From NCBI RefSeq assembly GCF_003334335.1, contig NZ_QOWQ01000067.1: a stretch of 9,120 nt of DNA; one strand, given 5' to 3'. The notes below the pieces were generated by a model, which worked only from the letters and a program-made list of their open reading frames with translations, had not been told where the DNA came from and did no database searches. A program made the translations under genes and the position numbers. Position 1 is the stretch's first letter. Every line of letters starts with the position of its first letter. Of this stretch, positions 8,547 to 8,885 are shown in pieces. The DNA is from Escherichia coli (GTDB taxonomy: Bacteria; Pseudomonadota; Gammaproteobacteria; Enterobacterales; Enterobacteriaceae).

Positions 8547-8885
8547 TCAGGCCTCCGCCGGTAGCCGTAATCGATTTGCCGAGCCGCAGACGGCGATTTT
8601 GCTTCTGACCACCTCTTTCATGGCGTCCATGCCAACCCGCATGTAAAAGCGCGGATCGTTGCTCTGCTGATTTTCAGCAAACCAAGCTTTGATAGCGTCA
8701 GAGAAGGCGATCTTCAACTCGGTTGCAACGTTGACTTTGCAGACGCCTGGCCCAATGGTGCGACGAACATACTCATCCGGCACATCGCTCGCCCCATGCA
8801 GCACAAAGCGGGCAAAACAAACGGCATAAATTCCATTTGTTTTGCCCGCTTTGTGCTGCCTCACCATTTCTGTCAGATGTTTCAC
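8547..8885 (-). pseudogene. In-frame kbaZ'-'kbaY fusion remnant (tagatose-bisphosphate aldolase non-catalytic subunit N-terminus fused to aldolase C-terminus)
   Basis: From GTG 8885-8883 the minus strand encodes (M)[22 protein letters not shown], which matches the KbaZ/GatZ N-terminus as recalled. After the linker FARFV it continues as [77 protein letters not shown], which matches the KbaY class II aldolase C-terminus. The intervening aga genes are absent. The track ORF extends to an ATG at 8951, but that overlaps an operator-like site. Confidence 0.6.
8798..8859. repeat. Perfect 24-bp inverted repeat with 14-nt spacer (hairpin/cruciform-capable) at the fusion junction
   Basis: Arm 1 at 8798-8821 (GCAGCACAAAGCGGGCAAAACAAA) is the exact reverse complement of arm 2 at 8836-8859 (TTTGTTTTGCCCGCTTTGTGCTGC). 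Spacer is CGGCATAAATTCCA. Checked base by base. Confidence 0.9.

Follow-up and report, generated by a model that had tools for sequence, protein, structure and literature searches.

Template switching at quasi-palindromes has been established experimentally as a source of mutation in Escherichia coli, where it is stimulated by replication stalling and suppressed by the 3' exonucleases ExoI and ExoVII (PMC7202029). In the events of this class, which follow the model of Ripley (1982) and are known from the thyA and rpsL hotspots of E. coli and from the lacZ QP5 and QP6 reporters of Lovett (PMC7202029), an imperfect inverted repeat undergoes a clustered multi-base change together with an indel, the new sequence complements the opposite arm exactly, the altered tract is bounded by complementary blocks that were already there, and the product is a perfect inverted repeat. 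Template-switch correction of inverted repeats has been inferred comparatively in Proteobacteria (PMC5941160), and short-range template switching has also been described as an evolutionary source of RNA hairpins (PMC8794818) and in great apes (PMC7954356); in these cases the sister sequence is imperfect and the focal one perfect, the mutation cluster can be read as one reverse-complement copy, and the potential RNA hairpin becomes much stronger. Quasi-palindrome switching is well documented in reporters; a natural precursor, its product and an outgroup are rarely available together.

The window studied here is a stretch of 9,120 nucleotides of E. coli DNA that carries, at the junction of a kbaZ'-kbaY' gene fusion, a perfect 24-bp inverted repeat with the sequence features listed above. 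We put the probability at roughly 0.8 that this palindrome arose by two successive and separable mutations, a repeat-mediated deletion that would have fused the two genes and a later template switch that would have perfected the palindrome. The locus would then be a clean and large (14 nt to 11 nt) natural E. coli instance of a known mutation class. Unlike the reporter cases, it became fixed in nature, in a pseudogene on an island that spreads horizontally, and was not a selected reversion, the tract is larger and more complex (14 nt replaced by 11 nt, with 24-bp arms), the event is known from sequence alone, and one of the boundary blocks, GTGCTGC, was itself completed by the earlier deletion, which brought in the C of kbaY. 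The evolutionary cases mostly concern non-coding, short-arm repeats or structured RNAs, whereas the kbaZ'-kbaY' repeat lies in former coding sequence at a fusion junction and has no evident RNA function.

Two further classes of rearrangement resemble parts of the proposed history. The first step is like RecA-independent deletion or slippage between direct repeats (microhomology) in that its endpoints lie in a short repeat, of which one copy is kept with no filler, as seen in a metagenome contig that we call L086; unlike the usual deletion of this kind, the repeat stems from a P-L-V-L motif of two paralogues, and its kbaY copy is certain for 6 nt. The locus is also like fold-back or hairpin-primed repair junctions (inverted duplications, MMBIR-type), in which a nascent strand primes on a nearby inverted copy; unlike those junctions, it has no inverted duplication beyond the pre-existing quasi-palindrome, and the deletion occurs without the palindrome in L086.

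Results and Discussion

Structure of the palindrome and of the fusion gene

Direct comparison within the window showed that the arms at 8798-8821 (GCAGCACAAAGCGGGCAAAACAAA) and 8836-8859 (TTTGTTTTGCCCGCTTTGTGCTGC) are exact reverse complements at 24 of 24 positions, and that they are separated by a 14-nt spacer, which reads CGGCATAAATTCCA on the plus strand. The next pair outward, T8797 and C8860, is mismatched. The outer three nucleotides on each side of the spacer can pair with one G.T (G.U) pair, giving a stem of 27 bp and a loop of 8 nt. When spacers of up to 50 nt were allowed, this was the longest perfect inverted repeat of the window, and the longest arms found in 20 shuffled versions of the window were 8-12 nt, in good agreement with the first-pass annotation, which had judged a chance origin very unlikely. 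That annotation had also placed a perfect 24-bp palindrome exactly at the fusion junction, and the exact complementarity of the arms and the position of the kbaZ'/kbaY' boundary, with minus as the coding strand, bear this out; its codon readings (QHKAGKT in one arm, CFARFV and then VLH in the other) are right for the ORF 8951..8547. The features are collected in Table 1.

Table 1. Features at and around the fusion junction, in window coordinates
Feature	Position	Strand	Sequence or remark
agaR-kbaZ divergent control region	8886..9120	.	repeated CTTTCGTTT / AAACGAAAG motifs
kbaZ' 5' coding remnant	8860..8885	-	KbaZ GTG start at 8885; in-frame ATG upstream at 8951
kbaZ-side arm	8836..8859	-	minus-strand GCAGCACAAAGCGGGCAAAACAAA, native kbaZ codons (R)QHKAGKTN
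Spacer/loop	8822..8835	-	native kbaZ, minus-strand TGGAATTTATGCCG
Second arm, inner 6 nt	8816..8821	-	TTTGTT, native kbaZ, pre-existing complementarity
Second arm, 11-nt tract	8805..8815	-	minus TTGCCCGCTTT, plus AAAGCGGGCAA; encodes non-native F-A-R-F
Second arm, outer 7 nt	8798..8804	-	GTGCTGC; GTGCTG is the kept direct-repeat copy, C is from the kbaY CAT codon
kbaY' remnant (pseudogene)	8547..8803	-	C-terminal 85 codons and stop, Enterobacter-like KbaY

The fusion ORF, whose translation begins with MTQYQ and ends with PAEA, is a dead gene; RefSeq treats it as two pseudogene pieces and the kbaY' remnant as an incomplete class II aldolase. In alignments to K-12, identity to kbaZ runs from the start codon through GCCGTTTGTT (8951 to 8816), and identity of the minus strand to kbaY starts at GTGCTGCATGG. 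The kbaY' remnant is about 81% identical to K-12 kbaY at the nucleotide level, and its closest intact relatives are the KbaY proteins of Enterobacter and Lelliottia, with 91-92% amino acid identity.

The kbaZ-side arm is identical to K-12 kbaZ and to the kbaZ' of a related island form, here called the B2-type island, except for its first G (AGG versus AGA, Arg), and the AGG codon, which provides the outermost G of the palindrome, is present already in the B2-type kbaZ'. The first-pass annotation had contrasted a native arm with a non-native one and had proposed reference genes as the arbiter. Comparison with K-12 kbaZ and kbaY identified the kbaZ-side arm as native, whereas the supposedly non-native arm turned out to be a composite of 6 nt of kbaZ, 11 nt of new sequence and 7 nt of kbaY; 13 of the 24 nt of this "new" arm are thus native kbaZ or kbaY sequence, and the GTGCTG of its outer 7 nt also occurs in kbaZ. 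The 11-nt tract, TTGCCCGCTTT, belongs to neither gene when aligned to K-12 and is the exact reverse complement of 8842-8852 (11 of 11).

The ancestral state of kbaZ

Past the junction point K-12 kbaZ continues with CCGCACATCCGCTGGTGCTGGAA, in which the complementary blocks TTTGTT, CCGC and GTGCTG are already found. After the first arm, both K-12 kbaZ and the B2-type island kbaZ' read GTTTGTTCCGCACATCCGCTGGTGCTGGAA, and the latter has GTTTTGTTCCGCACATCCGCTGGTGCTGGAAGC past the junction point, an imperfect sequence of native type. The pairs of blocks AACAAA...TTTGTT, GCGG/CCGC and CAGCAC/GTGCTG are common to K-12 kbaZ, the B2-type kbaZ' and L086. Since K-12 kbaZ and the B2-type kbaZ' carry the imperfect native-type sequence, the perfect arm is derived. 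No perfect arms were seen in intact kbaZ: the K-12 gene, the B2-type kbaZ' and 19 kbaZ genes of other genera were all imperfect, which disposes of the possibility, raised by the first-pass annotation, that both arms are part of intact kbaZ.

The B2-type form of the island occurs in about 190 complete E. coli genomes, among them strain 789, UTI89, CFT073 and Nissle 1917. In strain 789 (L005, 11000-12100) it comprises a kbaZ' of 277 bp with a +1 T frameshift, the 3' end of agaS', the 5' 319 bp of kbaY' with a frameshift, and a malX' cut to its 3' end. The two patterns of decay are different and independent; the malX-like gene next to the remnant is intact in the window-type island and truncated in the B2-type one. 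An intact island-type operon or kbaY was not found in E. coli, where these two decay forms (313 and about 190 genomes) were the only ones. A search for related proteins likewise gave short fragments and no intact ancestor; intact relatives came from a scan of genome contigs.

A direct repeat in kbaZ and kbaY

A direct repeat is common to the two genes (CAT CCG CTG GTG CTG GAA in kbaZ and CCG CTG GTG CTG CAY in kbaY) because kbaZ and kbaY are distant paralogues that have a P-L-V-L motif in common. The kbaZ copy, CCGCTGGTGCTG (H-P-L-V-L-E), is present in K-12 and in the B2-type island. On the kbaY side, all 79 intact relatives read CCN CTG GTG CTG CAY GG, with P-L encoded before VLHG, and most of them, nearly all of the closest Enterobacter-type genes included, have CCGCTG. 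In the island itself GTGCTG alone is observed and CCGCTG is deduced from the relatives; as the island-type kbaY upstream of GTGCTG is known only through these relatives, the direct repeat is certain over just 6 nt on the kbaY side and is probably 12 nt long. The two copies lie 4,760 bp apart in K-12.

The same deletion with a plain junction

L086 (ENA ERZ27287602, contig k141_26141) is a 56-kb metagenome contig that has the gene order of the window-type island and the same kbaZ-kbaY deletion as the window, with the plain junction GTTTGTTCCGCACATCCGCTGGTGCTGCATGG. Its fusion product (P0056), which was found among database fragment proteins, reads AVCSAHPLVLHGAS. In full, the junction is GCCGTTTGTTCCGCACATCCGCTGGTGCTGCATGGGGCGAGC, that is, CACAT-CCGCTGGTGCTG-CATGGGG, with one copy of the repeat kept and no filler. 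The sole difference between the window and L086 at the junction is the replacement of CCGCACATCCGCTG (14 nt) by TTGCCCGCTTT (11 nt). The ancestral 14 nt are found in L086, in the B2-type island and in K-12, and the flanking blocks, TTTGTT (6 nt) towards the loop and GTGCTGC (7 nt) away from it, are the same in L086 and the window. The k-mers that mark the two states of the junction are CACATCCGCTGGTGCTGCATGGGG for the intermediate and GTTTGTTTTGCCCGCTTTGTGCTGCATGG for the derived, palindromic form.

In the malY-like and enterotoxin genes, compared over 3,079 nt, identity to the window is 99.3% for L086 and 93.9% for the B2 form, and three-taxon informative sites group the window with L086 at 178 positions, against 12 and 9 for the other two groupings; these identities and site counts make L086 the sister of the window lineage, with the B2 form as outgroup. 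The window and L086 also share L19P and P46Q at invariant KbaY sites (P in 0 of 79 relatives at the first, Q in 0 of 79 at the second). Because these derived replacements at invariant sites are shared, the KbaY gene would already have been inactive in their common ancestor, which suggests that it was dead before the two lineages split. Each lineage also has private changes at invariant KbaY sites, among them a stop codon in L086.

The fusion segment of L086 (800 nt) is diverged by about 8% from all palindromic alleles, whereas the flanks differ by about 0.7%. The region of about 8% divergence (L086, 600-1400) spans the agaR-kbaZ spacer, the fusion remnant and the spacer before malX. Where they could be polarised, the private changes of L086 are mostly G-to-A or C-to-T, and the local divergence may reflect recombination with a more distant island allele, a long branch or local hypermutation. 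A chimeric assembly, or a recent gene conversion from native kbaZ, is an unlikely source of the plain junction, because across the junction native kbaZ has no more than 6 nt in common with the palindromic allele, and because the divergence, with its many private substitutions, reaches into kbaY' and the spacer, for which there is no native donor. The deletion-bearing intermediate is known from this one metagenome contig: no further intermediate was found in the complete E. coli genomes, a gapped pattern detected neither intermediates nor partial conversions among 10 contigs of a second metagenome collection, and the second protein search gave no protein cluster of this type. An independent deletion at the same repeat in L086 is, strictly speaking, conceivable.

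A proposed deletion followed by a proposed template switch

We propose that the first step was a multi-kb deletion, from about codon 33 of kbaZ to about codon 205 of kbaY, between short direct repeats: CCGCTGGTGCTG in kbaZ and a presumed CCGCTGGTGCTG in kbaY (V-P-L-V-L-H-G). Replication slippage or (RecA-independent) recombination would be the process, and the product would be the GTTTGTTCCGCACATCCGCTGGTGCTGCATGG / AVCSAHPLVLHGAS sequence seen in L086. In the second step, a nascent 3' end at ...TTTGTT (the switch-out block, 8816..8821) would have paired with AACAAA of the opposite arm, on the nascent strand or across the fork, and would have copied 11 or more nt with the kbaZ-side arm (8836..8859) as template (TTGCCCGCTTT GTGCTGC; TTGCCCGCTTTGTGCTGC). 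Re-annealing to the proper template at GTGCTGC (the return block, 8798..8804) would have completed the event, leaving 11 nt in place of 14 nt and a perfect 24-bp repeat in place of an imperfect one. The outermost G:C pair would be fortuitous, its G coming from the earlier AGG codon and its C from the CAT codon of kbaY. The palindrome would afterwards have been inherited and spread with the island, and is most likely a neutral scar.

The clustered differences between the two states consist of 2+1+several substitutions and a net loss of 3 nt, and every one of them raises complementarity. We infer a template switch because the complementarity is exact, the change is clustered, 3 nt were lost overall and blocks of pre-existing homology flank the tract; the strand, direction and enzymology of the switch, and whether its route was intramolecular or across the fork, are beyond the reach of sequence. 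The deletion and the fold-back copy are separable because L086 has the former without the palindrome. The first-pass annotation had read the junction as a signature of quasi-palindrome correction, which agrees well with the 11-nt tract; its further suggestion, that the event that formed the palindrome also made the deletion, is not supported, given the plain junction of L086. On this reading a mutation cluster at a fusion junction can postdate the rearrangement, and caution is needed in reading junction scars as signatures of mechanism. The locus is a pseudogene and does not alter the accepted picture of any system.

The alternative is a single step, in which a fold-back at TTTGTT in the intact operon, followed by a long-range return to GTGCTGC of kbaY several kb downstream, would have produced the deletion and the palindrome together. 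The copied end does fit GTGCTGC of kbaY (7 nt) one base better than the local GTGCTGG of kbaZ, the intermediate comes from a single contig with an unusually diverged fusion segment, and two events are needed under either account, since L086 would then have to stem from a reversion or from a plain deletion that arose independently at this repeat. We nevertheless consider both the one-step origin and this interpretation of L086 unlikely. An independent deletion requires that exactly the same interval was lost twice in sister lineages, and the derived changes at invariant KbaY residues that both lineages share argue that the gene was dead before they split. Reversion to the exact native 14 nt, on the other hand, requires a native kbaZ donor with just 6 nt of homology on the kbaY side. 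In quasi-palindrome mutagenesis generally, returns over a long range should occur far less often than local ones. If the one-step origin were true, the locus would be a bacterial, naturally fixed, hairpin-primed rearrangement that fused two paralogous genes.

The potential RNA hairpin

A separate question, whatever the origin of the palindrome, is whether the perfect hairpin has been retained for a function in the transcript. It might, for example, stabilise the mRNA or mark a site of processing, keep the fusion ORF from being translated, or modulate how far transcription from the putative AgaR-controlled kbaZ promoter reads through into the malX-like, malY-like and enterotoxin genes. Folded as RNA, the hairpin of the window reaches -51.3 kcal/mol (z -10.7), so that the strong transcript hairpin proposed by the first-pass annotation is real in energetic terms; nothing shows that it has a function, nor did the sequences bear a sign of selection. 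The hairpin would form within the kbaZ' coding remnant, about 30-90 nt from its beginning, and three intact genes follow downstream on that strand; the palindromic form of the junction is the common form, and the lone variant within the palindrome, a C-to-T change in the kbaZ-side arm that was found in four of the alleles compared, keeps a G.U pair in the sense RNA. These observations would fit a functional hairpin, but the precursor already folded at about -30 kcal/mol (-29.6 to -30, z about -4.3 to -4.5; the native K-12 segment, -29.6, z -4.5), the prevalence of the allele is accounted for by spread of the island, and one substitution in 62 nt is what the roughly 1% neutral divergence among palindromic alleles predicts. 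Nor does the sequence have the marks of a known element: no U-run follows the stem in either the sense (AUGGGGCGAGCG) or the antisense (CUCACCAUUUCUG) direction, a terminator scan made no call at 8798-8859, Rfam gave 0 matches at the gathering threshold in the whole window, and no compensatory double changes were present in the palindrome among the alleles compared. Retention for any of these functions thus seems very unlikely to us, and a role of the hairpin in tuning a putative AgaR-controlled transcript into the malX-like gene is possible but unsupported.

The 5' end of native E. coli kbaZ (L002, 1960-2010, codons ~10-35; 8816-8885 in the window) is itself a strong quasi-palindrome, and this segment folds more strongly than the corresponding part of kbaZ does in 19 other enterobacterial genomes (-17 to -28). 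One possibility is a natural hotspot of template switching, another a conserved mRNA structure.

Distribution of the palindromic allele

Of the 5,426 complete E. coli genomes, 312-313 contain the junction region of the window with an identity of about 99-100%; the junction is thus shared by related strains, as the first-pass annotation had thought worth checking, and is present in 313 of these genomes. In a BLAST search of the same 5,426 genomes, the 121-nt junction segment matched two kinds of site only, the junction in the island and, over 8816-8890, native kbaZ; the median number of matching places per genome was one, and the search for other copies that the annotation had suggested therefore revealed no dispersed element. 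The same 11-nt insert was found in 313 of 313 genome copies and in 10 of 10 metagenome copies, with no partial states, which is consistent with a single event. The palindromic alleles that were compared (the window, NCTC86, strain 3908, WL164, Z1323CEC0013, the contig L006 and ten metagenome contigs) form a tight cluster with 98.2-100% identity and an identical 11-nt tract. A further fusion protein, P0003, for which no contig is recorded, represents a diverged palindromic allele.

That the palindrome was inserted as a copy of some palindromic element, dispersed or mobile (REP/BIME-like or the end of a MITE), or is a product of chance or assembly, has nothing but its palindromic form in its favour and is as good as impossible, since the junction BLAST rules out a dispersed repeat or mobile element in E. 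coli, more than half of the "new" arm is native sequence, shuffling yields arms of at most 12 nt, and the junction is identical across independent complete genomes and metagenome contigs.

The contig L006 (JAIJJM010000184.1, 5.3 kb) is labelled as a Collinsella sp. MAG but matches the E. coli island junction, with its palindrome, at 100% identity, and almost certainly represents E. coli DNA that was mis-binned. Strain WL164 (L004, 3960-4060) has a further deletion, in which everything to the left of about window position 8750 was lost, including most of kbaY' and the malX-like, malY-like and enterotoxin genes, and the stub with the palindrome now adjoins an inovirus Gp2-like pseudogene. Decay of the island is ongoing, and the palindrome has outlived the WL164 deletion.

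The surrounding island

On the minus strand the order of the island is agaR, the fusion gene, malX-like, malY-like and enterotoxin, with the agaR paralogue beginning just past the end of the window. In NCTC86 the order is Mokosh-like genes, enterotoxin, MalY/PatB-like, malX-like, two class II aldolase pseudogene pieces and a second agaR. The island locus is distinct from the chromosomal aga operon, and island-bearing genomes have both (two places per record).

The CTTTCGTTT / AAACGAAAG motifs of the control region occur at 8917-8977 and 9094-9117 in inverted and direct arrangements, and we take these repeats to be putative AgaR operators from their appearance. As a result of the deletion, the putative AgaR-controlled kbaZ promoter now faces the malX-like, malY-like and enterotoxin genes. 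The remnant is a mosaic: its agaR-kbaZ' 5' part (8790-9120) shows about 97-99% identity with the aga locus native to E. coli, whereas kbaY' (8547-8803), as well as agaS' and kbaY' of the B2 form, are only about 80% identical to it and are closest to Enterobacter and Lelliottia. This pattern suggests that the island copy was gene-converted by the chromosomal locus or that it had a chimeric origin.

The RefSeq "enterotoxin" (637 aa, 3771-5684, minus strand) had no NCBIfam match at E <= 1e-5, and the ORFs adjoining it are clearly a C-S lyase of the PatB/MalY family and a MalX-type PTS IIBC. The left end of the window (1-2871, plus strand) encodes an anti-phage system of the Mokosh type. Its first gene runs past the start of the window, and the part that is present, ORF 44-1858, corresponds to the C-terminal 580 residues of PADLOC MkoA (E 6e-293). 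ORF 1855-2871 matches MkoB (E 2e-114), a protein of 478 aa in NCTC86; in the window a G-to-A change at 2871 turns TGG into the stop codon TGA and cuts it short.
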